This document shows, piece by piece, positions 701 through 59,999 of a stretch of DNA of 64,000 nt. Below the pieces are notes generated by a model. That model did not search any database, was not told where the DNA came from, and saw only the letters and a program-made list of their open reading frames with translations. Where the stretch lies: IMG/VR virus record IMGVR_UViG_3300025132_000021, positions 64,001-128,000 of that record; one strand, written 5' to 3'. The stretch is from a virus. Made by a program: the position numbers and the translations under genes. How positions within the stretch are numbered: position 1 is the stretch's first letter; each line of letters starts with the position of its first letter.

Positions 701-713
701 TTAAGTAGTCGTG
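701..713 (+). promoter_or_regulatory. Class I TATA-type promoter TTAAGTAGTCGTG
   Basis: Recurrent motif; ATG at 730 is 29 nt downstream. Confidence 0.8.
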
Positions 714-729
714 CCTATAATGACTTATT

Positions 730-1914
730 ATGGAGTCAGGTTCACCAATTACCAAAGCAGACCATGTTTGCCTCGGTCAGAAACTAACTTTTCCAGCGTA
801 TGGAGAAGATTCTTTAATTTCTAATGTCCTGTTTATCACAGGCAAGCGAGGTTCAGGTAAATCTTGGACAGCAGGTGTAATGATGGAAGAGTTTCATAGA
901 CTTGGATTACAATTTGTTTGTTTTGATGCTTTGAATGCTCACGGTGGCATTGATAGTCTGCCCAGAGTGGAATCATTGAAACCAGAAATCGGACAGTCTA
1001 TTGATATGAAATCTTTAGTAGACCGTTTGAAGACTACGGATAAAAGTTTAGTAATTGCTTTAGGAGGTTTGCCTCTGGTTAAGCAACAAGAACTTATCGG
1101 AGATTATTGCGAAGCCTTGATTGAGGCACGACTTGGTAAAGGCATACACACAGTTATTGAAGAATGTCAAGACTTTGTTCCTCAAATGGGCAGACCTATT
1201 TCTTTTGACCCAATCGTAAGACTCTGCAAACTTGGTCGTGCTTTAGGATATGGTGCGTCTTTGGTTTCCCAACGACCCGCAGGTGTGAACAAAGAAGCCC
1301 TTTCGCAAGCATCGGTATATTTAGTTCACAATGTCATTAACAACCGAGACTTGAAAACTTTGGACGAACAATTAAGTTTTGGAACAGACAAGCGATTGAT
1401 TAAGAAAATCTTGAATGGTATTGCTTCGGCTCGCAAAGGAGAGTGTGTTGCCTATGCCCCAGAGTTTTTCCGAGACCGAGGTTATCTGGTTATTGACAAA
1501 GTTCGTGGCGACCGTCAAGCCAAACACACAGGAAACAATGTAGATGTGCGAAGCACTTTGGGTGGAGTTAGCCATAGCGAAGATGAAGAAACAGAACCTT
1601 TTGAAGCCGTAACTTCAGCAGCAGAGTTAATGCCCTTTGCTCGTCAAAGTTCCTCAATAACACCTGCACCAACCCTCGCTAACGAAACATCGCCTTCGGC
1701 TCTCCCGCCGCTTTCCCAAGAGTTTAGAGGTATGGCTAAAGAATATGATGTTTGGGAGCCAAGTGTTGATGATTATGCAACCGAGTATGATACTGAACCA
1801 TTAGTAGAAAAGAAAGAATCTAAAAATACCAAGTGGATTCCTGTTGCTGCTGTGGGAGGAGTTAGCCTTACCGCAGGATTGTTAATGGTTGTTTTACAAG
1901 GTTTTAAGCGATAG
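730..1914 (+). CDS. HerA/FtsK-superfamily P-loop ATPase with C-terminal TM anchor; candidate genome-packaging ATPase
   Basis: Walker A GKRGSGKS, Walker B HTVIEECQ, KLGR arginine finger and SQRPA motif; hydrophobic C-tail ending GFKR. Confidence 0.75.
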   Translation: MESGSPITKADHVCLGQKLTFPAYGEDSLISNVLFITGKRGSGKSWTAGVMMEEFHRLGLQFVCFDALNAHGGIDSLPRVESLKPEIGQSIDMKSLVDRLKTTDKSLVIALGGLPLVKQQELIGDYCEALIEARLGKGIHTVIEECQDFVPQMGRPISFDPIVRLCKLGRALGYGASLVSQRPAGVNKEALSQASVYLVHNVINNRDLKTLDEQLSFGTDKRLIKKILNGIASARKGECVAYAPEFFRDRGYLVIDKVRGDRQAKHTGNNVDVRSTLGGVSHSEDEETEPFEAVTSAAELMPFARQSSSITPAPTLANETSPSALPPLSQEFRGMAKEYDVWEPSVDDYATEYDTEPLVEKKESKNTKWIPVAAVGGVSLTAGLLMVVLQGFKR

Positions 1915-1928
1915 TTTATATCGCTGAT
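1915..1928 (+). promoter_or_regulatory. Class II promoter-like motif TTTATATCGCTGAT
   Basis: Near-identical to TTTATATGGGTGAT at 54753-54766 and 54852-54865; GTG start about 30 nt downstream. Confidence 0.55.
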
Positions 1929-1945
1929 ACCGCTTACTTAAGAGC

Positions 1946-2785
1946 GTGACTATTTTTAATACACTTAGGGTTGGACAACCTCTTCTGTTGTGGGAGGATG
2001 TCAGAGATAAAGTCCCTTATGATGTAGAAATAGACGATTTTCATTCTTTGAATGCAGGTGATTTTGCTCGTCGTTATAGTCAAAGTAAAGTTGAACTGGT
2101 TGGAGATATGCGCTGTCCAGTGTGGTTTGCAGTTAGTCCCAAGACCAGAAAAAAGCAACATTATTGGAAAGTTGCTCAAGCCAATGGCGAAATCAAGTAT
2201 GTGCTACCCACCGATATTTTTAGCAGAGCCAAAGTTGCTCACCATAATAAAAACTTTGACCGTTGGGTTCATTTAGACTTGATTGTTCCTGATGGAGATA
2301 TAATGGATGTTGATAGACAACACTTACAGAAACATCCTTTTTCTTTTTTGTGTCCTATGACTGACCAATGGCTTCGTTATTCTACAATTCGTGGAAACTT
2401 TATTCTTCAAACTTTGCCTTACAAGTCTAATATCGGTGCAAGAGGGATTGTAGACCCAGATGATATGGAATTAGTAATGAACATGGGACATCTGAATCAA
2501 TGGAACTCAAAGTTTTACAAGTCTAAACATGGAATCGGCTATGTAGTTTCTCCAAAGTTCAAACCCGAATACTCTATTTCTAAAAAACTTAATGCAACTG
2601 CTTGGGAAAACTCTGGCGAAAAATGGCCTACTACTTTTGAGATGGATAATACAGATTATTACTATATCCCTTTATCATATTTTGAACCTTATGCCATTCC
2701 AGTATCCGACCTTGACCCTCTAACTACCCATGTTCTCAACTGGACAATCACTGGTTGCGACGATTTGATTAGAGCAAATCTTTAA
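1946..2785 (+). CDS. hypothetical protein
   Basis: 279-aa ORF; stop TAA lies inside the next TTAAGTA box (2782). Confidence 0.7.
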   Translation: MTIFNTLRVGQPLLLWEDVRDKVPYDVEIDDFHSLNAGDFARRYSQSKVELVGDMRCPVWFAVSPKTRKKQHYWKVAQANGEIKYVLPTDIFSRAKVAHHNKNFDRWVHLDLIVPDGDIMDVDRQHLQKHPFSFLCPMTDQWLRYSTIRGNFILQTLPYKSNIGARGIVDPDDMELVMNMGHLNQWNSKFYKSKHGIGYVVSPKFKPEYSISKKLNATAWENSGEKWPTTFEMDNTDYYYIPLSYFEPYAIPVSDLDPLTTHVLNWTITGCDDLIRANL

Positions 2786-2821
2786 GTATCAGGACTAACC
2801 AATTCTAATTAGGTTTTACCT

Positions 2822-3229: not shown

Positions 3230-3266
3230 GGCAATCTTTAAGTAGTAAAAGGAATAAGGTGATTAT

Positions 3267-4124: not shown

Positions 4125-4154
4125 ACAAAATAAAAAAACGGAGATGAACAAAAA

Positions 4155-4755: not shown

Positions 4756-4794
4756 GCAGTAATCTTTAAGTAGTCGTTCCATTTCATTTTAATT

Positions 4795-5652: not shown

Positions 5653-5686
5653 GAACTATTAAGTAGTATCTCTGACATTTAAGAGT

Positions 5687-12139: not shown

Positions 12140-12502
12140 ATGAGTTCTATGGACGAGTTTAATTGGGGCATTTATGGTTATCCTGTTTCTGACGAAGATG
12201 AGTCAGAATCTTTAACTGAAATCACAGCCCTTGCTTGGACAGGAGATTATTCCAACTTAGATATTCAAGAATACCACTTTGTTGTAGGCCAACCCGACCC
12301 TCGTTGTAGCCAACATCAGGTCATGGCTATCCGCCGAGTTTCCTATCCTGATGCAGACCCAGAAATCCAAATACTTTTACAAGGCGAATGCACGGCTAAT
12401 TCATGGGAACAATTTAGAGTTTTAGCGTGGGAAACCTCTGCAATCGCAAAGGTGGCTTTTGAAAGCGAGATGTCTTGGGCAGGAACACCAAACTTTAAGT
12501 AG
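12140..12502 (+). CDS. hypothetical protein
   Basis: 120-aa ORF; TAG stop inside the next promoter. Confidence 0.65.
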   Translation: MSSMDEFNWGIYGYPVSDEDESESLTEITALAWTGDYSNLDIQEYHFVVGQPDPRCSQHQVMAIRRVSYPDADPEIQILLQGECTANSWEQFRVLAWETSAIAKVAFESEMSWAGTPNFK

Positions 12503-16311: not shown

Positions 16312-16385
16312 GGGGTCGTAGTTTAATTTGGAAGAACAACTCGTTTGCGACGAGTAGGCTGGGAGTTCAAATCTCCCCGACTCCA
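16312..16385 (+). tRNA. tRNA-Ala(UGC)
   Basis: Cloverleaf: acceptor GGGGTCG/CGACTCC with G3:U70, anticodon stem ACTCG/CGAGT with loop TT-TGC-GA, T arm GGGAG-TTCAAAT-CTCCC, discriminator A; CCA not encoded. Confidence 0.92.
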
Positions 16386-16501: not shown

Positions 16502-17392
16502 ATGAAATCAATTAGTTTGCATTGTTTTTTGGGTGAAAAACTCTACAAAGCAGAGGAAAAAGGCAACTTTGGTGATGAGATTTCCCCTATTATTGTGCAA
16601 AATCTTATAGGTTCTGACTATGATTTGAGATATAATGATGACAATTGTGATGAAAGATTGCTGGCAATAGGGTCATTATTGCATGATGCCCAACCAAATG
16701 ATTACATCTTTGGCACAGGTTTCGGTCTTGAAGATAACGATAAACTTTCAGAACTAAATGTTTGCGCTGTCCGAGGACCATTGTCTCGTGAAAAGTTATT
16801 AGAAATCGGTGTGGATTGTCCAGAAGTTTATGGAGATGCGGCTTTACTTTTACCTGATTATTATGAACCTAACTATCTTCCAAACTTAGAGGGAAAAATT
16901 GGTGTTGTCCCACATTGGACGACCTACCCACATTATGAGAAACTTTTAGCCAACTCTAAACAATTCTATTTTATCAACCCAACTAATTCATGGCAACAAG
17001 TTATTGATGAAATCTATTCTTGCGATAAAATCGTATCTCAAGCATTACATGGTTTGATTTGTGCTGACGCTTACCAAACTCCTAATGTTTGGTTAGAGGA
17101 AAATATCTGGGCTTGTGTTTGTGGCAAACTTAGTGTAGATTCAGTCCTTAATCCTATTGAACCTCAACCACCTTGCTCATGCGGGTGGAACTACCATTCC
17201 ATAGGTAAAAATCTACCATTCCATAATGGAAACTTTAAGTTTTTAGATTACTTAGCCAGTCAAAACCGAGAAGTATCTCCTATTTCCCACCTACGGGAAG
17301 CCATCGGTGCAGATTACTATGAAGATGGAAACCAAATAGACTTAGAATTATTAAGAAACTCCTTTCCATTTGGTCAAAATACAAACCTTTAA
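16502..17392 (+). CDS. polysaccharide pyruvyl transferase family protein (ExoV-like)
   Basis: GNFGD, AIGSLL, VRGPLSR, YGDAALL, VPHW, LHGLICADAY motifs. Confidence 0.85.
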   Translation: MKSISLHCFLGEKLYKAEEKGNFGDEISPIIVQNLIGSDYDLRYNDDNCDERLLAIGSLLHDAQPNDYIFGTGFGLEDNDKLSELNVCAVRGPLSREKLLEIGVDCPEVYGDAALLLPDYYEPNYLPNLEGKIGVVPHWTTYPHYEKLLANSKQFYFINPTNSWQQVIDEIYSCDKIVSQALHGLICADAYQTPNVWLEENIWACVCGKLSVDSVLNPIEPQPPCSCGWNYHSIGKNLPFHNGNFKFLDYLASQNREVSPISHLREAIGADYYEDGNQIDLELLRNSFPFGQNTNL

Positions 17393-17398
17393 GTAGTC
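17389..17398 (+). promoter_or_regulatory. Class I promoter of the putative major capsid operon
   Basis: TTAAGTAGTC; ATG of a 7-aa uORF exactly 29 nt downstream. Confidence 0.75.
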
Positions 17399-17468
17399 AA
17401 AAAGTCCAATTAGTATTATGAGCAACCATGTGTTGTTCTAAAACCAAAAAAAATGGAGAATGAAAAAT

Positions 17469-19843: not shown

Positions 19844-20463
19844 TGAATCCAGAGATATTTCAATCGCTACGACAGGCTCGTATTCTTAATTGGACTTATT
19901 TTGCTCACATAGAACAATTTATCCGTGCCAATCTTGAAGATTTTAAGAATCTTTACACTGATAGATACTGGCGTGCCAAAATGACAGACGAAGACCGCAA
20001 AATGGCGAGCCATCCAAATCGTGGATACAGATGGATACCTAATTATTTAGAGAAACAGCGTTCAGAATTACAAGAAAAACTTTTAGATTATGTAGTTGGA
20101 CCTGATAATTATGAAAGCGGTTTGTGGAGTAGTTCTAAGTTTTGTTATAGTTGTGGAGTTACACAAGAAGACCGCAACGATTTCTTAAGAGATATGAACG
20201 AATGCTTAAAAAGCAAATCTACGAAAACCCCTCCCGACGCATTTCTCACAGGCTTAGGTGTTTTAGAATATAAAAGGATAAGAAGTGCGTGTTTCCAAGA
20301 AACTTCTACTAAATATGACCCTAAAGTTTCTCTTAGTATGAGCGAAGAAAGGTGGGAAATGGGTTCAATTCCATTTGCGGCTACTATGAATTATGGTTTT
20401 TGTAGTGGTTGTTGGGACGATATTAAAAAACAGAGTCAAGAACTAATCCGAAGGTTTAAGTAG
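19843..20463 (+). CDS. hypothetical Zn-binding protein
   Basis: CYSC and CSGC pairs; GGTGA SD; TAG stop inside the next promoter. Confidence 0.65.
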   Translation: MNPEIFQSLRQARILNWTYFAHIEQFIRANLEDFKNLYTDRYWRAKMTDEDRKMASHPNRGYRWIPNYLEKQRSELQEKLLDYVVGPDNYESGLWSSSKFCYSCGVTQEDRNDFLRDMNECLKSKSTKTPPDAFLTGLGVLEYKRIRSACFQETSTKYDPKVSLSMSEERWEMGSIPFAATMNYGFCSGCWDDIKKQSQELIRRFK

Positions 20464-21373: not shown

Positions 21374-21409
21374 TGAACCTTAAGTAAGTCCTACAATCTA
21401 TGCTATGCT

Positions 21410-22771: not shown

Positions 22772-22809
22772 GAGTAATCTTTAAGTATCAGGTGCGCCAA
22801 CCTTTTAGC

Positions 22810-26698: not shown

Positions 26699-26733
26699 GA
26701 ATCTTTAAGTAGTCGTGATGATAAACAATTGTT

Positions 26734-28601: not shown

Positions 28602-28644
28602 TCTTTAAGTAGTTGGGCAACGCCATAATACTTGGAGATAGATT

Positions 28645-29178: not shown

Positions 29179-29210
29179 GTATTAAGTAGTCGTAAGTAAT
29201 AGGTGATAAT

Positions 29211-33359: not shown

Positions 33360-33402
33360 TGCCATAACACTTAAATAGTAAAAACCCACAAAAAGGAGTA
33401 AT

Positions 33403-33771
33403 ATGAACCGTCTTGTTAATTGGTATTTTTACATAGTCATCTTGTTATTATCTTCATGTGTCTATTACACTTATTTGGTAATGCAAGTAGGTTCTATGAA
33501 TCCCCAAGTAATACGAGCCGAAATACTTAAAGATAGCACTTCATTAGGCGCATGGGCATTTTTGTTAGATATTATCTTTTTGTTTTTGATTGGAGTATTC
33601 ATTAAAAAACGCATGGTAAAAAGAAAAGAAACTAAATGGATGTCGGCGTTTGACGGACAATCTCAACTTATTATGGACTTAGAACCACTTCCAGTCCCGC
33701 ATTTACCTCCACCACCTCCCACACCAGAACAAATGGAATTGTTAGGCATACTTAAAGATGAGAACCTTTAA
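33403..33771 (+). CDS. 2-TM membrane protein with Pro-rich tail
   Basis: TTAAATA box at 33371 and AGGAG SD. Confidence 0.65.
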   Translation: MNRLVNWYFYIVILLLSSCVYYTYLVMQVGSMNPQVIRAEILKDSTSLGAWAFLLDIIFLFLIGVFIKKRMVKRKETKWMSAFDGQSQLIMDLEPLPVPHLPPPPPTPEQMELLGILKDENL

Positions 33772-33796
33772 GTATCAGAACCAACCTATCTGAAGT

Positions 33797-42422: not shown

Positions 42423-42629
42423 ATGTCGGAAGAGAGTCCAATCCCTAAACGCATGACTGTCAAGAAGTTGGGTCAAAAAGTGGATGAACTACAAGAAGTC
42501 GTAGATATTATCCATAGTGATATTGGAGAACTCAAAGAACTTTTGAAGACTATGATTGAACTTCAAATTGTTAAAACTCCAGAAATTGCTGATTCCAATG
42601 CGGCTTGGGTAGACCGTATGTATTCATAG
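42423..42629 (+). CDS. small coiled-coil protein
   Basis: P-I at 42394 (29 nt); heptad pattern. Confidence 0.65.
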   Translation: MSEESPIPKRMTVKKLGQKVDELQEVVDIIHSDIGELKELLKTMIELQIVKTPEIADSNAAWVDRMYS

Positions 42630-45600
42630 TTTCTCAAACAAAGTTTGTTGTTTGCCTAATTCTTTGCTTTCAAATGTTTCGGCTACCCATTTGCTCACTT
42701 GAGCATACAAGCCCGCAATATAATGATTACATCCATATTTGTCAATAAGGGTCTGCATCAGTCCATCATATTTACTAACACCACCTTCAGTCACAGTCAA
42801 AATCAAACGACCGGGACATAAAGTTTCTACTTCTTCGCCCGTGAATGGGTCAGTCTTGGTTTCCATAATAGTCCGACACTTACCACTCACAGGCACACGG
42901 CGATAACTTGCCCCACACTTAGGACATCTAACCTTTTGTTGCCCATAGGCTCTTAGATTACCTCGCATATCTCTGATAAGGTGTCTGTCTATCAATTTAC
43001 TGGCTTGTTCTTTATTGTCCACAGAAGCCAACATCTCACCTAATGCGAACTGTTCCATAGTTTTCCTTCGCATAGAATCTAAAGTATTGTAAGGATTGTT
43101 TCTTGGACCTGCTGCACAATCTTCAGTATCGTGCGTATAGCCGATTTTACCTACGGGCAATTCGCCAGCATCGGTTAAAGTTTCTACAATGGCTATGCCT
43201 TCAACTTTCAAAGCCGACTTCGGACTTGGTGGTTCATCTGCCTGAGTCAATTCATAAAACTCCACAGGATATTCCCAAACCACATCTACATTCAAGGCTT
43301 CTTTATCAATTTCAGTAGCCACAATTCTGGTTGTCAAAGTCAAAGGTGCGTCCATGCGTCCACCACGACTCTTAGGTAAAAACATACGGCTAAAGTTTAT
43401 TAGTCCTTCTGCCAAGAGCAAGATACAATCAATATCTCCATCACAATTTCGGCGTTTCGCTGCATGATAAAATGGATGTCCGTAATGACCTTTAACACCC
43501 GCTACACCAATGATACGAGCCAATACTGCCCCACTGGTATGCGGTGCAAGACCCATAATCAATTGTCCAATCAAACTTTCTTGAGGGTTATCTTCGTTGA
43601 TTTCATAAAAAGGTTCAAGTTCATACATGGTTTCTAACATATCATTAGTAAATCTCATAGCGGCGACCAAAGAGTTCACACAATTTTCAGCAACCACTAC
43701 ATCTTGAGGCATCAATTCAATAATCTGGTCATCTGCGACCACAGGTTTTCCTTGACAATCTACCACATAACCTAAATCTACTGCTTGTGCTGCCGTTAGT
43801 CCGATTTCATCGGGTCTAAAATGAGTCATGGTAATATCTACCATGTCAAAGCGAATAGTGCCATCACGGAAGGCACTCGTTCCATTTCGGTGTCTTAACA
43901 CTCCTTTGAGCATAGCCTCTGGAGTTTTCTCAGCACTTCGTAGACCTTTGCTACCTTTTACTTCAGGTTCAGTGGCTTGATGAGTAGTTTCTAAACAATC
44001 TTTCCAAATCTCCTCTGTCCCCAGATGTTGTTTAATGACTCCTACAAAGTTTGTTTCCGTTGCCTCGTGCGGTGCTGTCGCATCGCCCGAACAAACACCC
44101 CGCCAAGTCTGTGTATCACAAGTTGGACACACACGGACACCTACTGATACGCTTTCGTTCTTGCGAGCAGCATCACGAATACGGCGTTGAGAACCAGAGT
44201 TAAAACCCACAGGCCAAAGCCCATGCACAGGAGGATTCATCTCCCGATGTTTAGAACCTTCGGGCTTGCCCATTCTGGCTCCAATTCGCAAAGTTGTTCT
44301 GGGTCGGATTTCATAATCGGCCAAATCATTTAACCACTCTATTGCGGATTCATAAATACTTAAGTTTATTTTCAAAGATTTCTCAACTTTGGCTAATAAA
44401 TTAAGAACTAATAAACTTTCATCTCCAAACAGATTGCCCTCTGCGTCTATGTTAATCTGCGCTCGGTAGACCAATTCCCTAAACTTTTCAGGAACTTGAA
44501 TCTTTTCTCCACACAGGCTAATCGTGATATTACTCATCAACTCATAACCTTCTTCGGCTGTCAAATCTTGCCAGCCTGTGGCGACATATTGAGGTGCAAT
44601 TGGCACGCCATAAACTTTTGATTGTTCTACCGCTTCCAAGAAATTAGCAGGTGCGCTAATCATTTCTTTCTTTAACACAGCATTGTGCCATTCTGAAACA
44701 TAAGGACTCGGAGGAAGTGGATGGTTATTTTCTAAGAACTCACCTAATGGAACTAAGAGTTCACCCAAGTCCCAAACTTTACGAATCGGCCACTCTGGTT
44801 CAGTTGGCAGAACCGTCCAATCGTCCTCTGGTTCTAATCCTGCTAAAACTTTCAACTCTGCATCGGAATTAAACCTCTGTGCCGAACCATCATTAAGTTC
44901 TACATAAGGTCCGTCAATACTTGTGCAAGGAGTTGCCACAGTTGCTTTACCCGGTCTCTCATATTTCATTTGAGTTCCACAGATAACGAAACCTGCCATA
45001 GCCATCATAGTAACTGGGTGCATAGCAGTTGTCGCCAATCCTGCTAATCGGCTTCGCCCATAGCGCAATCTTAACCCGCCGCTTTGCATGGGCAATCCAA
45101 ACAAAGGTCGTCCTGCTAAGAAATCACTCATAAACTTATCACTTGGTTTAATTTCCGTAGACCCTGTTTTTGTTTGCACAAAACTTTTTAGCCAATCCCA
45201 GCCATCAAGTTCTAACGCTTCCACATATTTTAGAATCTTTGGTGCTTTCAGAACCAGACCTTCACACATAACCAACAGCATACCTTCACGAACTTTGTTA
45301 GTTGGCACTCTGGGTAAATCACGCTGTCCTGTGACTTCACCACCCACGCCTTCACCATCAACATAAACAGGACAATTTTGGGCAATTACTTCTAATTGAG
45401 GATTACTTGGTCTGTATTGTAGACCACGACTATATTTAGAAACTTCTTCCTTGTATCTTTCCACTTCTGCAAAAGTAACTTTCGGAGTTCCCAAACCAAA
45501 ATCACGGCGTAAGACATCTGCAATCAAAACACTAAGAGCCTGACCTGTTCCACCTGCTGAACGAATTGGTCCAGCATAGTTCACGGCTAAACATTCCGTA

Positions 45601-46190
45601 GCGTCATCATTAGATAGAATCCGACAGGATACTACACCTTCCAGTGGGGCTACAAGGATTCCTTCAGTTAGCACCGCCAATCCTGCACAGATACCATGAT
45701 ACAAACAAGCAGAGATTCTCAAATGTTCACCACGAGCCTTCTGCGCTTCAGTTTCATAAGTTTCTAAAGTTTCTTTCCAATTGGCTTTTCCAATGTCATT
45801 ATTGAATCCCATAACACTTCCAGTGCCTCCGCAATCATCACACGGAACTTTCCAAGTGGGTGTTTTAGCAATTTCACCAGAACCATTACAAGGTTTGCAC
45901 TTTTGTTTAACACCATACAATAAACTTTCAGCCGTTACAATACGAGCAATATCAATTGCTACCAATTCACGGTTTCCATCGTGAATCTCTGTTAATTCAC
46001 GGATTTGCTCTGCGGTGCGACGAAGATGTAAGAAATCCAGAAGTTTTTGAGTTCGGTCTGCCAAGTCGCTGGCTCTTGGGATTTCTACTGTTAAACGAGG
46101 GTCTAAACCTTTCGCACGAGCCTTATCTGCTAATTGATAAACAACATCACACTCTTCTTCTAATCTCTGAATGTATGCTTCATAATCCAT
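42624..46190 (-). CDS. polC: DNA polymerase D large subunit DP2
   Basis: ARAKGLDP..VEIP, LTEGILVAPLEG, YAGPIRSAGGT, RLRYGRSR, ERPGKA, GTIRFD, GLAPHTS, HAAKRRNCDGD, GGRMDAPL, C-terminal Zn site and PIP-like QQTLF. Confidence 0.97.
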   Translation of the reverse strand: MDYEAYIQRLEEECDVVYQLADKARAKGLDPRLTVEIPRASDLADRTQKLLDFLHLRRTAEQIRELTEIHDGNRELVAIDIARIVTAESLLYGVKQKCKPCNGSGEIAKTPTWKVPCDDCGGTGSVMGFNNDIGKANWKETLETYETEAQKARGEHLRISACLYHGICAGLAVLTEGILVAPLEGVVSCRILSNDDATECLAVNYAGPIRSAGGTGQALSVLIADVLRRDFGLGTPKVTFAEVERYKEEVSKYSRGLQYRPSNPQLEVIAQNCPVYVDGEGVGGEVTGQRDLPRVPTNKVREGMLLVMCEGLVLKAPKILKYVEALELDGWDWLKSFVQTKTGSTEIKPSDKFMSDFLAGRPLFGLPMQSGGLRLRYGRSRLAGLATTAMHPVTMMAMAGFVICGTQMKYERPGKATVATPCTSIDGPYVELNDGSAQRFNSDAELKVLAGLEPEDDWTVLPTEPEWPIRKVWDLGELLVPLGEFLENNHPLPPSPYVSEWHNAVLKKEMISAPANFLEAVEQSKVYGVPIAPQYVATGWQDLTAEEGYELMSNITISLCGEKIQVPEKFRELVYRAQINIDAEGNLFGDESLLVLNLLAKVEKSLKINLSIYESAIEWLNDLADYEIRPRTTLRIGARMGKPEGSKHREMNPPVHGLWPVGFNSGSQRRIRDAARKNESVSVGVRVCPTCDTQTWRGVCSGDATAPHEATETNFVGVIKQHLGTEEIWKDCLETTHQATEPEVKGSKGLRSAEKTPEAMLKGVLRHRNGTSAFRDGTIRFDMVDITMTHFRPDEIGLTAAQAVDLGYVVDCQGKPVVADDQIIELMPQDVVVAENCVNSLVAAMRFTNDMLETMYELEPFYEINEDNPQESLIGQLIMGLAPHTSGAVLARIIGVAGVKGHYGHPFYHAAKRRNCDGDIDCILLLAEGLINFSRMFLPKSRGGRMDAPLTLTTRIVATEIDKEALNVDVVWEYPVEFYELTQADEPPSPKSALKVEGIAIVETLTDAGELPVGKIGYTHDTEDCAAGPRNNPYNTLDSMRRKTMEQFALGEMLASVDNKEQASKLIDRHLIRDMRGNLRAYGQQKVRCPKCGASYRRVPVSGKCRTIMETKTDPFTGEEVETLCPGRLILTVTEGGVSKYDGLMQTLIDKYGCNHYIAGLYAQVSKWVAETFESKELGKQQTLFEKL

Positions 46191-46221
46191 GGCTACGCCT
46201 CTCTATGATAACATAGGGGCT

Positions 46222-46235
46222 ATCACTGGCTTAAA
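46222..46235 (-). promoter_or_regulatory. Class II-like promoter TTTAAGCCAGTGAT upstream of DP2
   Basis: 45 nt from the ATG, same spacing as the MCM motif; contains the upstream stop codon. Confidence 0.45.
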
Positions 46236-48939
46236 CTTGTCCGTCCATGAAAGAATATGGGCTACGGTCGTTAATAGAAACAACTTTTAGTTCACCATTC
46301 CAAACTAAAGTAGAACCATTTTCTAACTTGCGAGAAGGAATTGGTGCTAACGCCAAATCAGGGAAAGACCCTGAATCTTTAGGGAAACCTTTCTCTACAT
46401 TAAAACTTTCAATTTGCATCTCTGAACCATCTGGGAAAATCAGATAAATAAAATCTTCAGAATAAGTGTTGCCTAAATCTACGGCCACTACCATATCTTC
46501 GGATTTCCAATCCTCCATTCCTACATCATCAGCAGCCATTTCTATCCAGTTTAACAAATACTCGGCTAATTGAAAACTAATGTTTTCTAATCCATCGTTA
46601 TTCTTTTCTTCAAAAGAAAGAATTGGTTGTCTAAGCATAGTAATATCGCCATCATTATATCCTAAATAACTAAAACTAAATTGACGAGGTGAGCGAGCAT
46701 TAGCATCTCTAATAAAACCAAAGTTTTTACTACGATAGATACGGGCTAAGTTTCGGTGAAATACTAAGTTTTCATCTGACATCCAGAGCCAAAACAAATC
46801 AGCATCACTACTTACTGAACTTTCAGCCCCTTTTGCTAATGCCTTGTAGCAAGCACACTTTGGTTCAATTGCCGAGCAACTCATTGGCTCAGGTGCTTTC
46901 ATGCAAACACAAGGATTGGATTTAGTAGCACCACAGCAACACGAAGTTTTGCTAAGTTTTTCTTCAGCATCACGACGGCGTTTGAGCGACGGTGTTCCGT
47001 CCAGAGGAGTCCAGTTCACAGGTTCTCCAAACTCCATTGGTCTTTGAATAGGTGCAGAACCTTCTTCAGATGCAAAAGGATTTAATTTTTTAGCAGCAGT
47101 TTGAGCCTTATCTTTAATTTTTTGAGTTGCTGGCATCTGTTCTACGGTAGACCTTACTCCACCATATTTGCGGTTGCACCACTCTTCTTGTCTTTCTCTT
47201 TCCTCTACCAATGCCGACTCATCTTTAGTATTCGCAAAGACAGATGCTTTAATTGCATTCCCGAACTCTTGATAAAATGCTGCTTTTTCATTATGTGTCA
47301 GACCTGAGATTTCGGGGGCAACATCTTCTACCAACATATTAACAATCATTGAGCAATTTATGTTCTTTTGAGGAGTTGAATACAGGGTGTAGTTATCATC
47401 ACCAGCCCGACAATAAATACCCATAGCCCTCGCAATAGGCCATGCCAATCTTTTAATTGCGCCTGATGGAATCTCAAACCGTTGCTTAACATAATCTTTA
47501 CCTTCTTTCTTATCCACCATTGTTGCTTGTTTAGTAAAACTACTAACCATTTCTGCAACACCCATCACTGAAGGTTCACTTGTTGCACTGGCGGTTGGAA
47601 TCTTTGACATAGGTTCTCCACGAGCCAAGGCCGCTACCACATCTAATGGAGATTGCACCACACCAGTTCCACTGACAGTAGGACCAGTAGTGCCTGTTTC
47701 TAATTGGGCTAACTCTTCCATCATAATTGATGACAAATCTCTGTAAAACTTCTGACTTTTATTTCCATAAGGCGGTGCAGCCACGACATAACCATCTTTG
47801 GCTAATCTTTTTAATCCACCAATTAAAGCGGCTCGTAATGGTTCAGTTCTTGATTTTGCCCCATCAACTTCTCCCTTAACATAATCTGCTTGAAAACTTT
47901 GTTCAGCACGCATTTCTGGAGGCTTATAGGTGCGACCCAACAAATCATAGATTTCTTCTTCAGTTGCCCCGCCGAGATACTCGTTGGTATCACGGTCAAA
48001 CAATCCGTATTCATTAAGTTTCAAACCTTTGCGCTTGGCTGCCGAGCGCATACCAATGTTATATCCAGAAGGTCCTGTAAAATAAAGTAAGGCTGCGCCG
48101 ATACCAGTAGGTGTGCTAACTTTAATATCTACTTTAACACCATCAATAACTAATTGAGTTTTCTTTTCACCCAACCAATTATATTTCTCATAGTTTCCTT
48201 CTAAGTCGGCTACTATTTCTGGCAAAGTAATACCTTCTTTAAGAATAACTACTACATCAAGGTCGCCCGGGTCTTCCCGACCACGACGATAACTTCCACA
48301 AACTTCTACAAAGTCTGCATAAGGTTCTAACATATCTGAAACTTTATTGGCTAAGAGTTCTGCTTCTGCACGAGTCATACGCTCTGATTCATCTCGGTCT
48401 TCTGCCCCAAACTTTTCAACTAATTGTTTCATAATTTCTTCTTCACTAATCAATCCTAATCTAACCATAGATTCCAACTGCAACAAAGTTTCTTGCATCT
48501 GGGCTTCTTCAATCATCTTTTGATACATCACAGCACGCTCGGCGTAACCTTTTGGAACTTTACCTCTGACCACGGCATTAAAAGTTTCAATTTCGTCCAC
48601 ATCAACTTCTTCCATAACATACAAAATACGATAAGCAGGTTCGTCGTCTAAACTTTCTTCTTGGAGAATGTAGGAAACTTGGTCTTCCGCTTCGCCACGA
48701 ACACCAATGAAAACTTTGTAAGGTAAATCTGCTTTAGTAGACACGGCTTCTAAACTCACGAACTCATCAGCAGGCAAAAGTTCTTGAACACGATATTCCG
48801 CATCAAAGTCCATTAGATATTTAGAATTACGAAACATTTGTTGAGCAAATTGATAAGGCACTAAAACATACCTTTGATTATCTCTGGGGTCAGAAACAAT
48901 AGTTCCCATAGGAGATACAGAAACAAAATTAAGTTGCAT
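46231..48939 (-). CDS. polX: polyprotein-like protein containing a minimal family X DNA polymerase (aa ~181-346)
   Basis: CGSYRRG..GDLDVVV, KVDI, LLYFTG, GLKLNEYGL, EEEIYDLLG..PPEMR; bracketed by FGAE and MRAE; P-I at 48969. Confidence 0.85.
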   Translation of the reverse strand: MQLNFVSVSPMGTIVSDPRDNQRYVLVPYQFAQQMFRNSKYLMDFDAEYRVQELLPADEFVSLEAVSTKADLPYKVFIGVRGEAEDQVSYILQEESLDDEPAYRILYVMEEVDVDEIETFNAVVRGKVPKGYAERAVMYQKMIEEAQMQETLLQLESMVRLGLISEEEIMKQLVEKFGAEDRDESERMTRAEAELLANKVSDMLEPYADFVEVCGSYRRGREDPGDLDVVVILKEGITLPEIVADLEGNYEKYNWLGEKKTQLVIDGVKVDIKVSTPTGIGAALLYFTGPSGYNIGMRSAAKRKGLKLNEYGLFDRDTNEYLGGATEEEIYDLLGRTYKPPEMRAEQSFQADYVKGEVDGAKSRTEPLRAALIGGLKRLAKDGYVVAAPPYGNKSQKFYRDLSSIMMEELAQLETGTTGPTVSGTGVVQSPLDVVAALARGEPMSKIPTASATSEPSVMGVAEMVSSFTKQATMVDKKEGKDYVKQRFEIPSGAIKRLAWPIARAMGIYCRAGDDNYTLYSTPQKNINCSMIVNMLVEDVAPEISGLTHNEKAAFYQEFGNAIKASVFANTKDESALVEERERQEEWCNRKYGGVRSTVEQMPATQKIKDKAQTAAKKLNPFASEEGSAPIQRPMEFGEPVNWTPLDGTPSLKRRRDAEEKLSKTSCCCGATKSNPCVCMKAPEPMSCSAIEPKCACYKALAKGAESSVSSDADLFWLWMSDENLVFHRNLARIYRSKNFGFIRDANARSPRQFSFSYLGYNDGDITMLRQPILSFEEKNNDGLENISFQLAEYLLNWIEMAADDVGMEDWKSEDMVVAVDLGNTYSEDFIYLIFPDGSEMQIESFNVEKGFPKDSGSFPDLALAPIPSRKLENGSTLVWNGELKVVSINDRSPYSFMDGQV

Positions 48940-50373: not shown

Positions 50374-50390
50374 TACTTAAAGATTAAGTA
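50374..50390. promoter_or_regulatory. back-to-back class I boxes TACTTAA-AGA-TTAAGTA
   Basis: Perfect inverted repeat; the minus copy is 29 nt from ATG 50351, the plus copy has no ATG at 29 nt. Confidence 0.7.
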
Positions 50391-52077: not shown

Positions 52078-52102
52078 ATTATCACTATCTCCTATCAACT
52101 AC

Positions 52103-53827
52103 TTAACTGTTGTCATCGTCCCACATATCAGGTGGAAGCACTTGAATGAATGTGGCTTTCTGTATGTTTTTCTCTGTGCATTCCAACCAACCTTGGTTAA
52201 TCATGTATTCCCATTCTTTGTCGCTAAATGGAACTCTGTCCCGCATTTCTTTGACATCTGCAAACGCTCTTTCTAAAGTTTGTGCATAGTCATTTAAGCG
52301 TTGGTGAACTTCAGCAATTCTTTTAGATGCCCCTGACTTAATATACTTCCAATCTCCATCTTGAATCAATGTATTCAAAGATTCAGTAAAGATGCGCTCG
52401 GCTTTTTCAATACTCATGCGAGAAACTACTCTTTCACCATTTAGTCGGGCAAACCCTTTGCACAGGTTCACAAACTCTTGAAACTTTCGGAAATCACGAC
52501 TGGTTCTTTTGTCTAAGAAAGCAGCAGAGAACTCTGGCATCGCCTTAATACGATTCATGGCTTCACGAATGTCCATACGATGTGGAGTAATATCGGGTTC
52601 TTGTTCACTTACATACCTTAGATACTGACGGAAGAAACTTCTCCACATACTCAAGTTGTTGTTAAACTCTTTCTTGAGATACTTACCATTCATAGCATCA
52701 AGGATTTTATCTTCAATAGCATACTCGGTATCACCATCAGTCAAGGTCATACGAGCGAAAATCAATGTCAAACGACTAAGAATCTGTGGTGTGTATTCTC
52801 CAAAAGCACCTAACATACCCATTTTAGCAGGTCTACCATCTTTGGTTTCTGTTTTGGGGTCCCAATCACGAGGAGGATTACCTAAGAACATAAAATTAAC
52901 TTTACCTTCTCTTTTGGTGTCCACTTGTCCTTTTTGCATTGTGAAACTACCATTAGCCATCACATTCATTAGTTCACCGAATACCTCTTGATTCCATGTT
53001 TGAAACTCGGACACAGCGATGCGTTCATTATTCATCTTTGGTATCAATCCCAACTCAATTGAGTTGAGGTCTTCGCCACTCATGGCTCCGAATAACCCCG
53101 GAATTGTGCAAAGTTTTCCACTGGAGGCTACGCCACACGGCACTAAAGGTTCAATCATCTGTTCAATCAAATGGTCTTTACCCTCGCCCATACTGCTGAT
53201 AATACCCATGTGTAGCATATCAGTTTTCTTTTGAGGACTTAGGCAATACAACATAACTCCATATTTGATAGGAGGGTCTGCATAAAGTTTAGACCATAAA
53301 GTATCATCACGAACCATCAATTCTAATGGGCTGAAAGCAGGACCGTGTTCATCACACAAAGCCATAAACTCCGTGAACTGTTCATCAGTCATCTGGCTAC
53401 TTTGCATTTCAACATTCTTTTGAATGTCAGTGACTACAAAGACCTTATCACGACCCATCATTTGATAAGCACCGCTTACCATGAGTTGTGAACCATCACG
53501 AATACTTTCAGTTAGCATCATCATTGTTTGACGCAGCCGTTCTGAATCCATACCACCGGGTCTGGAATCTAAACTACCATTATGTGCCATGCACTCTACG
53601 GCGTAAGTTCCATCACTGATGAAGAAACGAATAGCCGACTGGTCAGGATTAGGACTTTTAGAATTAAGAGGAACTTCTTCCATCTTCAGACAAATGCCTG
53701 AACCTATTTCTAAATGCTTCTGTGAAATCTTAGCGGCATAGATGCGCTCAATGTTGGCATCGGTGCTATGATAGGTGGATGTTGCAGACTCTACGAACTC
53801 ATGTATTTCGCTCGGAATGTCTAACAT
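52103..53827 (-). CDS. mcm: divergent MCM-family replicative helicase
   Basis: LHMGIISSMGEGKD, TIPGLFGA, IELGLI, IAVSEF, MANGSFTMQKG, GNP, ILSRLTL arginine finger, FARL; N-terminal OB fold. Confidence 0.8.
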   Translation of the reverse strand: MLDIPSEIHEFVESATSTYHSTDANIERIYAAKISQKHLEIGSGICLKMEEVPLNSKSPNPDQSAIRFFISDGTYAVECMAHNGSLDSRPGGMDSERLRQTMMMLTESIRDGSQLMVSGAYQMMGRDKVFVVTDIQKNVEMQSSQMTDEQFTEFMALCDEHGPAFSPLELMVRDDTLWSKLYADPPIKYGVMLYCLSPQKKTDMLHMGIISSMGEGKDHLIEQMIEPLVPCGVASSGKLCTIPGLFGAMSGEDLNSIELGLIPKMNNERIAVSEFQTWNQEVFGELMNVMANGSFTMQKGQVDTKREGKVNFMFLGNPPRDWDPKTETKDGRPAKMGMLGAFGEYTPQILSRLTLIFARMTLTDGDTEYAIEDKILDAMNGKYLKKEFNNNLSMWRSFFRQYLRYVSEQEPDITPHRMDIREAMNRIKAMPEFSAAFLDKRTSRDFRKFQEFVNLCKGFARLNGERVVSRMSIEKAERIFTESLNTLIQDGDWKYIKSGASKRIAEVHQRLNDYAQTLERAFADVKEMRDRVPFSDKEWEYMINQGWLECTEKNIQKATFIQVLPPDMWDDDNS

Positions 53828-56216: not shown

Positions 56217-58348
56217 TATACCATGCCTCCTCTGGCATTTAGCCAATCACGGGCTTCATCTTCTTCTTCAAAGATTATATCTTCTCCATAAGTAGTTGCT
56301 ACCCACGAGTTTGTATCCGTATTCCAAATGCCCCATTGATTTTCAGATTGTGTTTCTGCACGCTGTAATTGTTCTTGCATTTGAGTGTTTTCATCTAATG
56401 CTTTTTGCACATCAGGGTCAGAACCGTCCATTTCATTAAGTGCTTGTGCCGTATCTTCTAAGGCTTCTTTCATCGCCTCACGGTCTTCGGGATTATACGG
56501 ATTCATAGCATCCATCGCTTCTTTGGATTTATCATGCGCTTCTAACGCTTTTTCTTGAGCATTTTCTAATTCATCAGGACTACTGGCATCTTGCGAGTCG
56601 TTAATACTTTCTTTAGCCTTTTCTGATGCTTCTTTCGCTTTGTTTTGACATTCGGCTCTATCCTCTTGTCGGTCTTTAACTTCTTCGTGCGCTTCTTGTA
56701 GCATATCACGAAGTTTGTCTGCGGTTTCTTCATCTATTTCATCGGCTTGTTCAGCGTAATCAATTGCCCATTCTGCATCTTCAATGGCTTGCATAGCCGA
56801 ATCGTCTGCATCAGCCATGTTTTTCTGGTCTTGAGTATTACGCTCATCACCTTTTTCGTTAGCACGGTCGGCGGCTTCTTTAGAAGCCATAGCCTGTTCA
56901 ATAGCCTCCATCATAGCATCAGCACTATTGTCATCTCTTTTTTCGGCTTCATCTTTGGCTTCTGATGCGGCCTCTTGATGTGCCTTTGCTTCTTGAGCAG
57001 CCATACCCGATGGGCTGGTATCTTGCCCCGGTTTCATATCATCTACTGCATCTTTGAGAGCATCTGCCTTGGTTTTTTGAGCATCGGCTTGCTCTTGAGT
57101 CATATCACCTTGTTCTACGGCTTTATCTGCGGCTTCTTTGGCTGCGTCCAAAGCATCTTTAGCATCTTGCTTGGCTTGTTCGGCCATATCTACTTCATCA
57201 GGTTTATCAGGATTACAGTTTCCGCAACATTCTCTTGCCCCATCAACTGCTTCTTTAGCGGCTTGCGCTGCTTGTTCAAAGTCCGAAGGCATTTCTCCAC
57301 CGCCAGATGGGTCGCCATCTTCAGAGGGTTCTCCACCTTCTCCAGTTCCCGATGGTTCGCCTTCACCTTCTCCTGAACCTTCTCCTTCACCGCCTTCGCC
57401 TTCGCCTTCGCCGCCCTCTCCAGAACCTTCTCCCCCTTCGCCACCTTCACTTCCGCTTCCAGAACCTTCGCCACTACCTTCTCCGCCTTCTCCGCCTCCG
57501 CTTCCACTGCTTTCGCCTGAACCCGAACCGCTTCCTTCAGAACCATCACTTTCGCCGCCGCCTTTGCCTGCTGCTTTTTCTGCATCGGCTTTACCTTGCG
57601 CTGCTCTTTCTGCACCTTGTTGCATACCTTGTTGGCGTTGGGCTTCAGATTGAGCCTGTGATTTTTGAGCATCAGATTGACCTTTAGATTCTGCGGAACT
57701 TTCTCCACTTCCAGAGCCACTACCTTCTCCTCCACTCATACCATTGATTCCTTCTCCTTCGCCACCTTCTCCATCTAAAAATGGGTCTGGTCCGGGGAAT
57801 GGTGGTGGTTGTTCGGGAGATGGTCCCGGTGATGGTCCCGGTGATGGACCCGGTGCTGGCCCGGGTCTTGCTGGTCCTCTTTGTGGCCCGGGTGTCGGTG
57901 TTCCTCTTTGTCCTCCTCCTCCGCCCGGTGGTGCTTCATCATAAACGAAATCATCATCTGTGGCATCGGACATCCCGACCCATTGAGATTTTTCAGGCCA
58001 TGTGGTTCTCTCTACATAAGTAAATACTAAAGCATCTCCGAAACCAGACATTTCAATACACCAAAATTGAGTTAGTGCATCAGCGATTACATCTATGTCA
58101 GAGGGATTTACTACAAAACCTTCTACCCGATATACTGCATCATTGGCAGGATTGCGAATCAGTTTAACTTCTTCTAACGAAGTATTGGCACGCAACCATT
58201 CTGCGAAACTGACCAGTGTGCTACGAAAAATAGAACCTTTAACTATTACCCATTTTACAGGCAACCAACCCTCATTGGCTTGATAGAGGTTTTCATCACC
58301 TTCTATTATCTCACCAGAGCCTACATTAACCCATTGAACCGTTGCCAT
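56216..58348 (-). CDS. large low-complexity protein (PG-rich, GE/GS-rich, acidic helical)
   Basis: TTAAATA box at 58378; PGPS repeats, GEGEG tract, A/D/E/K helical region. Confidence 0.75.
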   Translation of the reverse strand: MATVQWVNVGSGEIIEGDENLYQANEGWLPVKWVIVKGSIFRSTLVSFAEWLRANTSLEEVKLIRNPANDAVYRVEGFVVNPSDIDVIADALTQFWCIEMSGFGDALVFTYVERTTWPEKSQWVGMSDATDDDFVYDEAPPGGGGGQRGTPTPGPQRGPARPGPAPGPSPGPSPGPSPEQPPPFPGPDPFLDGEGGEGEGINGMSGGEGSGSGSGESSAESKGQSDAQKSQAQSEAQRQQGMQQGAERAAQGKADAEKAAGKGGGESDGSEGSGSGSGESSGSGGGEGGEGSGEGSGSGSEGGEGGEGSGEGGEGEGEGGEGEGSGEGEGEPSGTGEGGEPSEDGDPSGGGEMPSDFEQAAQAAKEAVDGARECCGNCNPDKPDEVDMAEQAKQDAKDALDAAKEAADKAVEQGDMTQEQADAQKTKADALKDAVDDMKPGQDTSPSGMAAQEAKAHQEAASEAKDEAEKRDDNSADAMMEAIEQAMASKEAADRANEKGDERNTQDQKNMADADDSAMQAIEDAEWAIDYAEQADEIDEETADKLRDMLQEAHEEVKDRQEDRAECQNKAKEASEKAKESINDSQDASSPDELENAQEKALEAHDKSKEAMDAMNPYNPEDREAMKEALEDTAQALNEMDGSDPDVQKALDENTQMQEQLQRAETQSENQWGIWNTDTNSWVATTYGEDIIFEEEDEARDWLNARGGMV

Positions 58349-58371
58349 CACTATACCGTATGCGTAGCAAC

Positions 58372-58403
58372 TATTTAATGTTTGTTATGGTTAATCTTAA
58401 ATA
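58372..58403. promoter_or_regulatory. divergent TTAAATAGTTG promoter pair
   Basis: Class I variant on both strands, 30 and 28 nt from the respective ATGs. Confidence 0.65.
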
Positions 58404-58424
58404 GTTGAGTCCTAAACAATAAAC

Positions 58425-59180
58425 ATGGTTGCCAATGTTGCCATTCAAATCTCTGCGTGGTGGGGTGAGATTGATGATGACTCCACAGCCTTTACTTCAT
58501 TTTCTGGTCAAAGAATTATGTTGGCTCAAAACTTTGATATTAAGAAATTGATGACTATGACTAATCAACAAGCCTTAAAACATTTTGTAGTTAATGTAGA
58601 TATGAGAGGGCCTCAACAGATTTATGCTGATAAAGAGGGTTATGCAAAAGCCATAGACGGAGTTCGTAATAAACCCATCAAAAGTCTTAGTTATAGTCCC
58701 AGTTCAATCACTGATGGAAATAATGATTGGCTCTGGATTGATTTATACCCAGTAGAGTTCTTGGCTCACGAGGACACCGAATCAGAGTTTGCGATGTTTA
58801 ACGAATCACTTGGGGATGATGAGAGCCTAAATTACTTTAACTTTTGCTATAATCTAAAAGAATGGCTCACTGCATGGAATAGACAACTCCAGTTCACAGA
58901 GGGTTCAAAAAAAATAATCTCCAAACTATCAGCAGGCCGTATGCCTCTTTTTGAAAGTTTTAAGACAATACCTGATTATGTAGGACCTCCGGGAATAAAT
59001 GTAGATGAAACTTACACAAATCTCATAGATAATCCTGAATATCAAAGATTAAAAGATTTTGGCATTTATTTGATGTCTTCCGAAGCAGCCACAGATTTTA
59101 GAAGGCTTCTGGGTAATTTAACTAATTCTATTCTAAATTGGACACAAACTTCGGTTGATGACCTGCTAAACTTTAAGTAG
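58425..59180 (+). CDS. hypothetical protein
   Basis: 251-aa ORF; TAG stop inside the next promoter. Confidence 0.7.
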   Translation: MVANVAIQISAWWGEIDDDSTAFTSFSGQRIMLAQNFDIKKLMTMTNQQALKHFVVNVDMRGPQQIYADKEGYAKAIDGVRNKPIKSLSYSPSSITDGNNDWLWIDLYPVEFLAHEDTESEFAMFNESLGDDESLNYFNFCYNLKEWLTAWNRQLQFTEGSKKIISKLSAGRMPLFESFKTIPDYVGPPGINVDETYTNLIDNPEYQRLKDFGIYLMSSEAATDFRRLLGNLTNSILNWTQTSVDDLLNFK

Positions 59181-59201
59181 TCGTGCGACAGCATGGTAAC
59201 T

Positions 59202-59999
59202 ATGGAACCTTGGCGTAAGCACTTTGAAATGTTTTCAGCAGATGCTCTGGAGGACATGAAAACTTATTCTGACAATACTCACGAAGAAAGGGAATGGATG
59301 TGTTATGTCTACGAAAAGGATGGTCGTTATGAACTTGGCTCGCCGTCGCTTGGCACAGAATCTCGTATTGAGGTTAATCCAGTCGCTAAGGCAGCGCAAG
59401 ATGCTGGCAAAGGTTTGACTAATCGTATGTGGACTATCCACGGACACCCTCTAAAAGATGGTAAGATTTACACAGGTCGCCAATACTTTTCCTCTACGGA
59501 TATTATCAATGAGTTCCTAAAAACTCGTGATACCAACGAACCCGTAGTTCAATGGATTACTTATCCTCATCAACAATTAGATACTAATACTGGTAAGAAA
59601 GTTATTCACAACCGATGCCGAACTTTAGTGTTTCCATCTCGTGATGTAGTTATCAAGGCCATGCAAGTTAGCAATCCAGATGTAGATGTTATGGCAATTA
59701 CCAGAGAATCTGGACAAAACCGCAACGCTGCCGATGGTAGTTTAGTAAATGATTCAGGTATTGATTGGTTCGCTTTCCAAGAAGCACTGGGAGATATGGG
59801 CTACATGGGCATTATGGATTTAGAAGGACCAGCCGCAGGAGCCAAGCCTTTCCGTAGTGAATCTATGTTTGTGAAAAAGTTTGGAATGCTTTCTGTGATT
59901 GCACTCGGAATTGCAGGATTCGCATACTTGAGCAAAACTCAAGGATTTGGTGCAGAAGTTGAAGTCGTTGATGGCTTAGGCGAATGGCACGAAATCTGA
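59202..59999 (+). CDS. JAB/MPN-like Zn metalloprotease with C-terminal TM
   Basis: EREW..TIHGHP..FSSTD (E, HxH, SxxD); P-I at 59173 puts the start at ATG 59202. Confidence 0.65.
   Translation: MEPWRKHFEMFSADALEDMKTYSDNTHEEREWMCYVYEKDGRYELGSPSLGTESRIEVNPVAKAAQDAGKGLTNRMWTIHGHPLKDGKIYTGRQYFSSTDIINEFLKTRDTNEPVVQWITYPHQQLDTNTGKKVIHNRCRTLVFPSRDVVIKAMQVSNPDVDVMAITRESGQNRNAADGSLVNDSGIDWFAFQEALGDMGYMGIMDLEGPAAGAKPFRSESMFVKKFGMLSVIALGIAGFAYLSKTQGFGAEVEVVDGLGEWHEI

Follow-up and report, generated by a model that had tools for sequence, protein, structure and literature searches.

Phages are known to switch transcription between promoter classes by means of sigma factors, as exemplified by gp55 at the late promoters of T4 and by gp28 of SPO1. 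The poxviruses encode VITF-3, a factor that resembles TBP (the TATA-binding protein) as well as TFIIB (PMC12917281). Among the viruses of archaea, a virus-specific GTC motif that follows the TATA box is attributed to the rudiviruses SIRV1 and SIRV2 (Kessler et al. 2004, as cited in PMC5569661), and an annotated virus-borne transcription factor B (TFB) appears in a figure of PMC10768690 for the Aoguangviridae; TFB is also annotated in the Sulfolobales viruses YNP1/2, several rudiviruses and tailed viruses of Halorubrum, and TBP in HJTV-2 and HRTV-9. Our searches of the literature turned up nothing that connects a virus-borne factor of this kind with a promoter class. Here we analyze a 64,000-nucleotide stretch of DNA (hereafter, the window), bases 64001-128000 of the 160,342-bp IMG/VR virus record IMGVR_UViG_3300025132_000021 (41% G+C, with inverted terminal repeats), in which the heptamer TTAAGTA recurs at a nearly fixed distance from ATG codons. 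This box, denoted class 1 (TTTAAGTA when given as an 8-bp box), is compared with a minority of host-like boxes (class 2), with the promoters of three related viruses (G001, G017 and G018) and with those of Poseidoniales genomes (among them G005 and G007), the probable hosts.

Position and anatomy of the TTAAGTA box

The window contains 38 copies of TTAAGTA, whereas 100 dinucleotide shuffles gave 10.4 ± 3.6 (maximum 19); this comparison with random occurrence had been set beforehand as a refuting test in an earlier note on this DNA. That note had listed 30 boxes with an ATG 28-30 nt downstream, and every one of the 30 coordinates was confirmed: the ATG lies at +29 in 26 of the 38 copies (including the minus-strand boxes at 50380, 51130 and 52106), at +30 in three (20456, 21380 and, on the minus strand, 48969) and at +28 in one (5659). 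Given that 1.9% of positions hold an ATG, its presence at a single offset in 26 of 38 copies corresponds to P = 4e-36; in the whole genome, 50 of the 91 copies have an ATG at +29 (P = 5e-61). When the ATG is required to open at least 40 codons, the genome contains 48 boxes at +29, 11 at +30 and three at +28, and ~62 of the roughly 223 open reading frames (ORFs) in the 160 kb, about a quarter, begin behind a class-1 box. The leftover ~26 copies match the number expected by chance, so the bare heptamer is not avoided within genes, and one-mismatch variants at the correct distance are almost unused. About 10 further boxes in good sequence context lie 36-46 nt before an ATG, implying leaders of 7-17 nt, and in these a Shine-Dalgarno (SD)-like word stands right after the predicted start.

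A sequence logo was built from 48 genome sites aligned with the A of the ATG as +1. In these sites, TTTAAGTA occupies positions -30 to -23, with C at -31, T at -30 and TTAAGTA at -29 to -23. Upstream of it are adenines reminiscent of the TFB recognition element (BRE), at -34 in 46 of the 48 sites and at -33 in 44, likewise found in G001 and G018; downstream is a tail at -22 to -19 of the form G/T-Y-N-G (G or T at -22, C or T at -21 and G at -19). The context described in the earlier note, AA(T/A)CT upstream and GTCG, GTTG or TCAG downstream, holds in this logo. A weak A-A pair at -10/-9 forms an A-rich -10 element, and position -1 is a pyrimidine in 48 of 48 sites here and 48 of 48 in G001, compared to 47.5% at other gene starts. 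All class-1 starts are ATG, and an SD-like tetramer precedes 12 of 46 of them (26%) versus 91 of 162 other starts (56%); because such words are rarer before class-1 starts, the data fit leaderless first cistrons combined with SD-led internal cistrons. The GTCG tail follows the box in 15 of the 62 sites, and TCAG/TCAA and GTTG tails are equally frequent. A division of GTCG and TCAG tails into two temporal subclasses was considered and rejected, given that tails swap between orthologues (19 same, 14 different).

For mapped start sites of Thermococcus kodakarensis, the median distance is 23 bp to the TATA box and 33 bp to the BRE (PMC4247193), and Haloferax volcanii has a WW -10 element, with the start codon as the first codon of most mRNAs without any leader (PMC4983044). 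Our sites match these mapped positions if transcription begins on the A of the ATG. The box, the BRE adenines and the pyrimidine/purine initiator (Inr) of an archaeal BRE/TATA/Inr core promoter are all present, the start site being deduced from their arrangement. It appears very probable that the class-1 box belongs to an archaeal-type promoter that yields leaderless or near-leaderless mRNAs, as the earlier note had proposed. Under this scheme, TBP would bend the box, TFB would read the AA element and perhaps also the tail, and the host RNA polymerase would be positioned to start on the A of the ATG; the first cistron would be translated leaderless, and the downstream cistrons of the operon would use GGAGG or GGTGA ribosome-binding sites. 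The predicted promoter resembles archaeal leaderless BRE/TATA/Inr promoters in the A-rich element ~33 bp and the TATA box end 23 bp before the presumed start, the A/T element at -10, the pyrimidine-purine start, the leaderless first cistron and the SD sequences on internal cistrons. It differs from cellular TATA boxes, which are degenerate (those of the probable host included), in that a single heptamer, one that contains a G, is used in 62 promoters.

The boxes of the window, with strand, start codon and product, are as follows.

701-707, +, class-1 box; ATG 730; 394 aa, weak HerA/FtsK-like ATPase
2782-2788, +, class-1 box in good context; ATG 2822 at +40; implied 11-nt leader beginning AGGT; absent from the earlier list
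3238-3244, +, class-1 box; ATG 3267; 285 aa; box kept by the G001 orthologue
4766-4772, +, class-1 box; ATG 4795; 95-aa ORF
5659-5665, +, class-1 box; ATG 5687 (+28); 196 aa
6274-6280, +, class-1 box; ATG 6303; 75 aa
7066-7072, +, class-1 box; ATG 7095; 147 aa
9259-9265, +, class-1 box; ATG 9288; 290 aa; replaces the TTG 9282 start
12495-12501, +, class-1 box; ATG 12524; 310 aa
13465-13471, +, class-1 box; ATG 13494; 267 aa
14294-14300, +, class-1 box; ATG 14323; 340 aa
17389-17395, +, class-1 box; the +29 ATG opens 7 codons only; the gene at 17460 is probably served by a leadered mRNA
20456-20462, +, class-1 box; ATG 20486 (+30); 295 aa, family-2 glycosyltransferase
21380-21386, +, class-1 box; ATG 21410 (+30); 453 aa, AAA+ ATPase
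22781-22787, +, class-1 box; ATG 22810; 626 aa; replaces the GTG 22792 start
26705-26711, +, class-1 box; ATG 26734; 503 aa, WGR domain
28605-28611, +, class-1 box in good context; ATG 28645 at +40; implied 11-nt leader beginning GGAG; absent from the earlier list
29182-29188, +, class-1 box; ATG 29211; 266 aa
30015-30021, +, class-1 box; ATG 30044; 189 aa
32361-32367, +, class-1 box; ATG 32390; 156 aa; replaces the GTG 32369 start
33371-33377, +, class-2 (host-like) box TTAAATA; ATG 33403 at +32; AAGGAG immediately 5' of the ATG
33768-33774, +, class-1 box; ATG 33797; 159 aa
34291-34297, +, class-1 box; ATG 34320; 235 aa
35798-35804, +, class-1 box; ATG 35827; 319 aa
36793-36799, +, class-1 box; ATG 36822; 1375 aa
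41819-41825, +, class-1 box; ATG 41848; 55 aa
42161-42167, +, class-1 box; ATG 42190; 64 aa
42394-42400, +, class-1 box; ATG 42423; 68 aa
48963-48969, -, class-1 box; ATG 48939 (+30); 902 aa, PolX-like; followed by PolD DP2 (46190-42624) without a box of its own
50374-50380, -, class-1 box; ATG 50351; 461 aa
51124-51130, -, class-1 box; ATG 51101; 140 aa, SAP-domain protein
52100-52106, -, class-1 box; ATG 52077; 316 aa; replaces the TTG 52098 start
58372-58378, -, class-2 box TTAAATA; ATG 58348; 710 aa; divergent from the box at 58397-58403
58397-58403, +, class-2 box TTAAATA; ATG 58425 (+28); 251 aa
59173-59179, +, class-1 box; ATG 59202; 265 aa; replaces the ATG 59193 start

Of the five start corrections that the earlier note had derived from the box, the three with an orthologue in G001 (9288, 32390 and 52077) give N-termini collinear with it, and the box at 4766 exposes, as announced there, an ORF that is missing from the longest-ORF list. 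Most of the class-1 genes belong to no recognizable family (PHROGs, Pfam). Those with a family are the PolX-like/PolD DP2 operon, the AAA+ ATPase, the family-2 glycosyltransferase, the SAP-domain and WGR-domain proteins and the weak HerA/FtsK-like ATPase; the protein atlas returned no function for two conserved class-1 proteins, and no class-1 gene encoding a virion protein was identified with PHROGs and Pfam. The designation "late (structural)" that the earlier note gave to this class finds no support: because the genes behind the box include the PolX-PolD operon, the AAA+ ATPase, the glycosyltransferase and the SAP-domain protein, the class-1 box is a general majority promoter, not a promoter of structural genes.

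Some individual loci deserve mention. The 394-aa protein (730-1914, +) gives a weak match to HerA/FtsK-type P-loop ATPases, at 20.2 bits, below the cut-off. The genes for the PolX-like protein (902 aa) and for PolD DP2 (1188 aa) are arranged head to tail at 42624-48939 (-), behind one class-1 box. At 17389-17460, a run of A and the word GGAGA separate the 7-codon frame from the gene at 17460; this may represent either a short upstream ORF or a 42-nt leader. For the tRNA-Ala(TGC) gene (16312-16385, +), neither class of box is recognizable in the 60 nt upstream.

Conservation in related viruses and comparison with the probable host

The relative G001 has a genome of 166 kb, with which 31% of the present genome aligns at 70% nucleotide identity. 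It contains 48 sites at +29 and 12 at +30, its logo matches, and there is no purine at -1. For 33 orthologous proteins (29-69% identity), the box is kept in both genomes. In the 22 orthologue pairs with collinear N-termini, nucleotide identity amounts to 72-100% at -34 to -19 and 68% at -10/-9, as against ~40% in the remaining spacer and further upstream; this pattern marks selection on the box and its distance rather than on the whole region. There are 18 sites in G017 and 47, at +29/+30, in G018, viruses whose TBPs are 54-56% identical to that of the virus studied here, and contigs with TFBs 61-68% identical to its TFB likewise use the class-1 box. In HJTV-2, a haloarchaeal virus with its own TBP, no TTAAGTA-N22-ATG site was found. 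A scan for the box followed by GTCG and ATG gave several matches only in the known TBP-encoding relatives, among the matches listed, and is thus a poor guide to how widely the box is spread. As judged from the relatives above, the box and its spacing are conserved across a deep clade of viruses, with relatives at ~70% nucleotide identity or less. A separate scan of IMG/VR with an extended 16-mer, AATCTTTAAGTAGTCG, was discarded: apart from G001, the nine contigs that were checked contain chance single matches, with no excess of TTAAGTA-N22-ATG.

The TFB encoded by this virus is 77-99% identical to proteins of other virus-like contigs, and its closest cellular relatives are all TFBs of Poseidoniales (Marine Group II), with 52-57% identity. 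As the nearest cellular TFBs all come from this group, the host is probably a member of Poseidoniales. The gene content of the window includes the large subunit of PolD, the PolX-like protein and an MCM-like ATPase. PHROGs recognizes almost no large protein of the window, and no match to terminase, portal or HK97 capsid was detected among the ten large proteins scanned. Literature searches yielded no description of this lineage, of the TTAAGTA promoter or of a PolD-encoding Poseidoniales virus, and no report of a virus-encoded PolD turned up. The terminal inverted repeat (genome positions 1-50 and 160293-160342) is exact over 50 nt, not over 100 nt; in G001, the first class-2 box together with a 73-aa ORF is present at both termini, that is, duplicated.

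The five Poseidoniales genomes (1.2-2 Mb) contain 0-5 TTAAGTA-N22-ATG sites each, with no excess over a reversed-pattern control, and a fixed-distance word search upstream of host ATGs recovered SD-like signals only. The tRNA and TBP genes of the host have boxes such as TTAAATA, TTGAAATA, TTTTATATA and TTTATAAG ~30 nt upstream, and the distribution of AT-rich octamers on a high-GC host contig has its peak 29-30 nt upstream of start codons. The host consensus was taken from these tRNA and TBP upstream regions and from the distance-peak analysis. An attempt to define it from AT-rich words in G005 was discarded as artefactual, the words having come from an AT-rich island, rich in TTTAAAT, that takes up the first ~10 kb (positions 1-10000 of C1) of this host contig of 59% G+C. 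In the single-cell Poseidoniales genome G007 (contig C2, about 68,840), cacTTTAAGTAaata lies directly 5' of a predicted tRNA-Leu of unusual length (99 nt), the sole gene-adjacent host example of the viral box that was noticed.

Viral TBP and TFB and the selection of the box

The earlier note had surmised that these promoters might be read by a virus-encoded TFB/TBP-like factor, and a search of the genome located genes for both proteins outside the window. The TBP (genome 15803-16381) contains two PF00352 repeats (90 and 68 bits, above the Pfam cut-offs), its best match among solved structures is the Pyrococcus TBP (1e-37), and the EQFPG and LxF motifs are retained. The TFB (genome 139124-140107, -) has the Zn ribbon, both cyclin folds and the C-terminal BRE-reading helix: it matches PF08271 (38.8 bits) and, twice, PF00382 (85.6 and 72.4 bits), likewise above the cut-offs, and its four cysteines and GVTEVTIRNR helix are invariant relative to host TFBs. 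The viral TBPs have a 7-residue insertion in the N-terminal stirrup. As a separate observation, three Poseidoniales TBPs have an insert of 30-58 residues in repeat 2 that is absent from the viral TBPs.

About 15 genes of this virus have a different box at -30, namely TTTATAT followed by C, G or T, TTAAATAGG, or TTTATGTA. These class-2 genes include the TBP gene, the TFB-containing operon and genes for an XPD-like helicase, a PriS-like primase and a Get3/ArsA (Get3-like) ATPase. In G001, the TBP and TFB genes follow the box TTTATATGGG, in G018 both follow TTAAATAGGTG, and in three further contigs the TFB gene follows TTAAATAGGT. Thus, in every lineage checked (this genome, G001, G018 and the three further contigs), the TBP/TFB genes lie behind a host-like box other than TTAAGTA, either TTTATAT or TTAAATAGG. 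That the viral TBP and TFB are what selects the TTAAGTA box is a reading that we advance tentatively. It is possible, albeit open to considerable doubt, that the two proteins form a private pair that redirects the host RNA polymerase from TTAAATA/TTTATAT to the G-containing TTTAAGTA. The position of the factor genes fits a programme, the likeliest one in our view, in which host factors would read the minority class-2 boxes first and the viral TBP/TFB pair would subsequently favor the TTAAGTA class.

Several points weigh against these readings of the promoter and its factors. The placement of +1 on the A of the ATG is read from promoter geometry, and the order of early and late expression solely from which genes lie behind which box. 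The BRE-reading helix and the RGRS loop of TFB are identical in virus and host, and the DNA-facing residues of TBP (Asn, Val, the Phe pairs, Leu, Val and Thr) are conserved between the two; because the DNA-contact residues are the same, the proteins predict no changed specificity. The host boxes that form the 29-30 nt peak are degenerate; TTTATGTA, which has its G where the viral box has one, accounts for three of them. Judging by these peak boxes, degenerate promoters seem to give the host some mRNAs without leaders, and host boxes, too, can have a G at this position. Furthermore, some TTAAATA boxes of G018 carry the ...TAGTCG flank of the TTAAGTA class, so that the base at -25 (A or G) may be insufficient by itself to tell the two classes of boxes apart.

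These same observations, namely the unchanged DNA-contact residues of both viral factors, the TTTATGTA boxes among candidate host leaderless promoters and the flanks partly shared by A and G versions in G018, are compatible with an explanation that we regard as plausible, although we would not bet on it: host TBP and TFB read the box as they would any promoter; that the box is so uniform results from selection for a single strong consensus, which gene cassettes may have helped to spread, and the virus-encoded factors merely raise or protect transcription capacity without new specificity. It also accords with reviews, according to which archaeal viruses use host TBP/TFB (PMC5569661). However, the box shows no excess at the leaderless distance in the host genomes, the G version is retained, with at least 60 boxes per genome, across relatives whose TBPs are only 55-70% identical, and the TBP and TFB genes themselves always avoid the TTAAGTA box in the lineages checked. 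Another difficulty for exclusive reading by host factors is that both viral TBPs share, besides the stirrup insertion, an Ala-to-Cys change at a position that we take to be DNA-facing from a motif alignment with yeast TBP.

The genome is also subject to a sweeping purge of palindromes. CGCG, ACGT, GTAC, TCGA, CTAG, AGCT and GATC have 0 copies in 160 kb, where 565-1172 are expected per tetramer, CCWGG has 0 copies as well, and of the 64 6-bp palindromes 57 are missing altogether, TTTAAA and TATATA (106 expected each) among them. Because the latter two are purged, canonical boxes such as TTTAAATA are forbidden in this genome. The G at -25 could then be a by-product of restriction-site avoidance, with TTTAAATA and TTTATATA forbidden and TTTAAGTA the nearest allowed word, an explanation that we consider improbable. 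The class-2 boxes are indeed exactly the allowed neighbors of forbidden words (TTTATAT followed by C, G or T; TTAAATA without a preceding T), but G001 keeps 34 copies of TTTAAA and ~11 in-register cTTTAAATA boxes with flanks of their own, and yet uses TTTAAGTA in ~60 promoters. The odd forms of the minority boxes in this genome can be put down to the purge; the majority box cannot. In the relatives, CTAG and GATC are absent in 5 of 5 checked, and AGCT, CGCG and GTAC in most; G001 retains ACGT, TCGA and TTTAAA.

Finally, given that most large viral proteins have no family and could include an unrecognized polymerase or regulator, TTAAGTA might not be a TATA box at all: it could instead mark the conserved 5' end of a 29-nt leader of fixed length, be a site for a different viral regulator or act as promoter for a viral RNA polymerase that has gone unrecognized. 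Such readings are highly improbable because the AA at -34/-33, the position of the box, the -10 element and the pyrimidine/A at -1/+1 fit the TBP/TFB geometry exactly (PMC4247193), the spacer is unconserved, and boxes 40 nt from the ATG are followed by SD-like words exactly where a +29 start would place them. A search for a viral RNA polymerase, which was not exhaustive, gave no NADFDGD-type motif in any of the six frames, and none of the large proteins scanned fell into a polymerase family.

Relation to known viral systems and implications

Like SIRV1 and SIRV2, this virus has a stereotyped promoter that is used virus-wide, with a GTC-containing word directly after the TATA box; the host phylum and the type of virus are different, and the tails interchange between orthologues here. 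The similarity to the phage sigma switches and VITF-3 consists in a virus-encoded promoter-recognition factor, a uniform promoter class found only in the virus, and factor genes that lie behind the other class. The difference is that this virus encodes full-length archaeal TBP and TFB, whose DNA-contact residues are unchanged and whose tie to the box is a prediction. Virus-borne basal transcription factors are shared with the archaeal viruses listed at the outset; in the present case, TBP and TFB occur together. What appears to be new is a nearly invariant, G-containing box that is conserved across a deep clade, goes together with viral genes for TBP and TFB that themselves lack it, and shows no excess at the leaderless distance, 22 nt before ATG, in five probable host genomes.

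In practical terms, the box pins down start codons and brings small genes to light in a genome that could otherwise not be annotated, and it provides a simple signature for recognizing this clade of viruses in ocean metagenomes. Archaeal viruses are generally said to rely on the TBP and TFB of the host (PMC5569661); this lineage carries both, and the possession of its own copies suggests a viral switch of the host transcription machinery. Since the two-class promoter code is readable from the sequence, the idea of a basal-factor switch during infection can be tested by means of two recombinant proteins and a pair of short DNA templates. If the viral TBP and TFB indeed form a private pair, they would be to archaeal viruses what the sigma switch is to phages, retained throughout a deep clade of large viruses of marine archaea whose replication relies on PolD.

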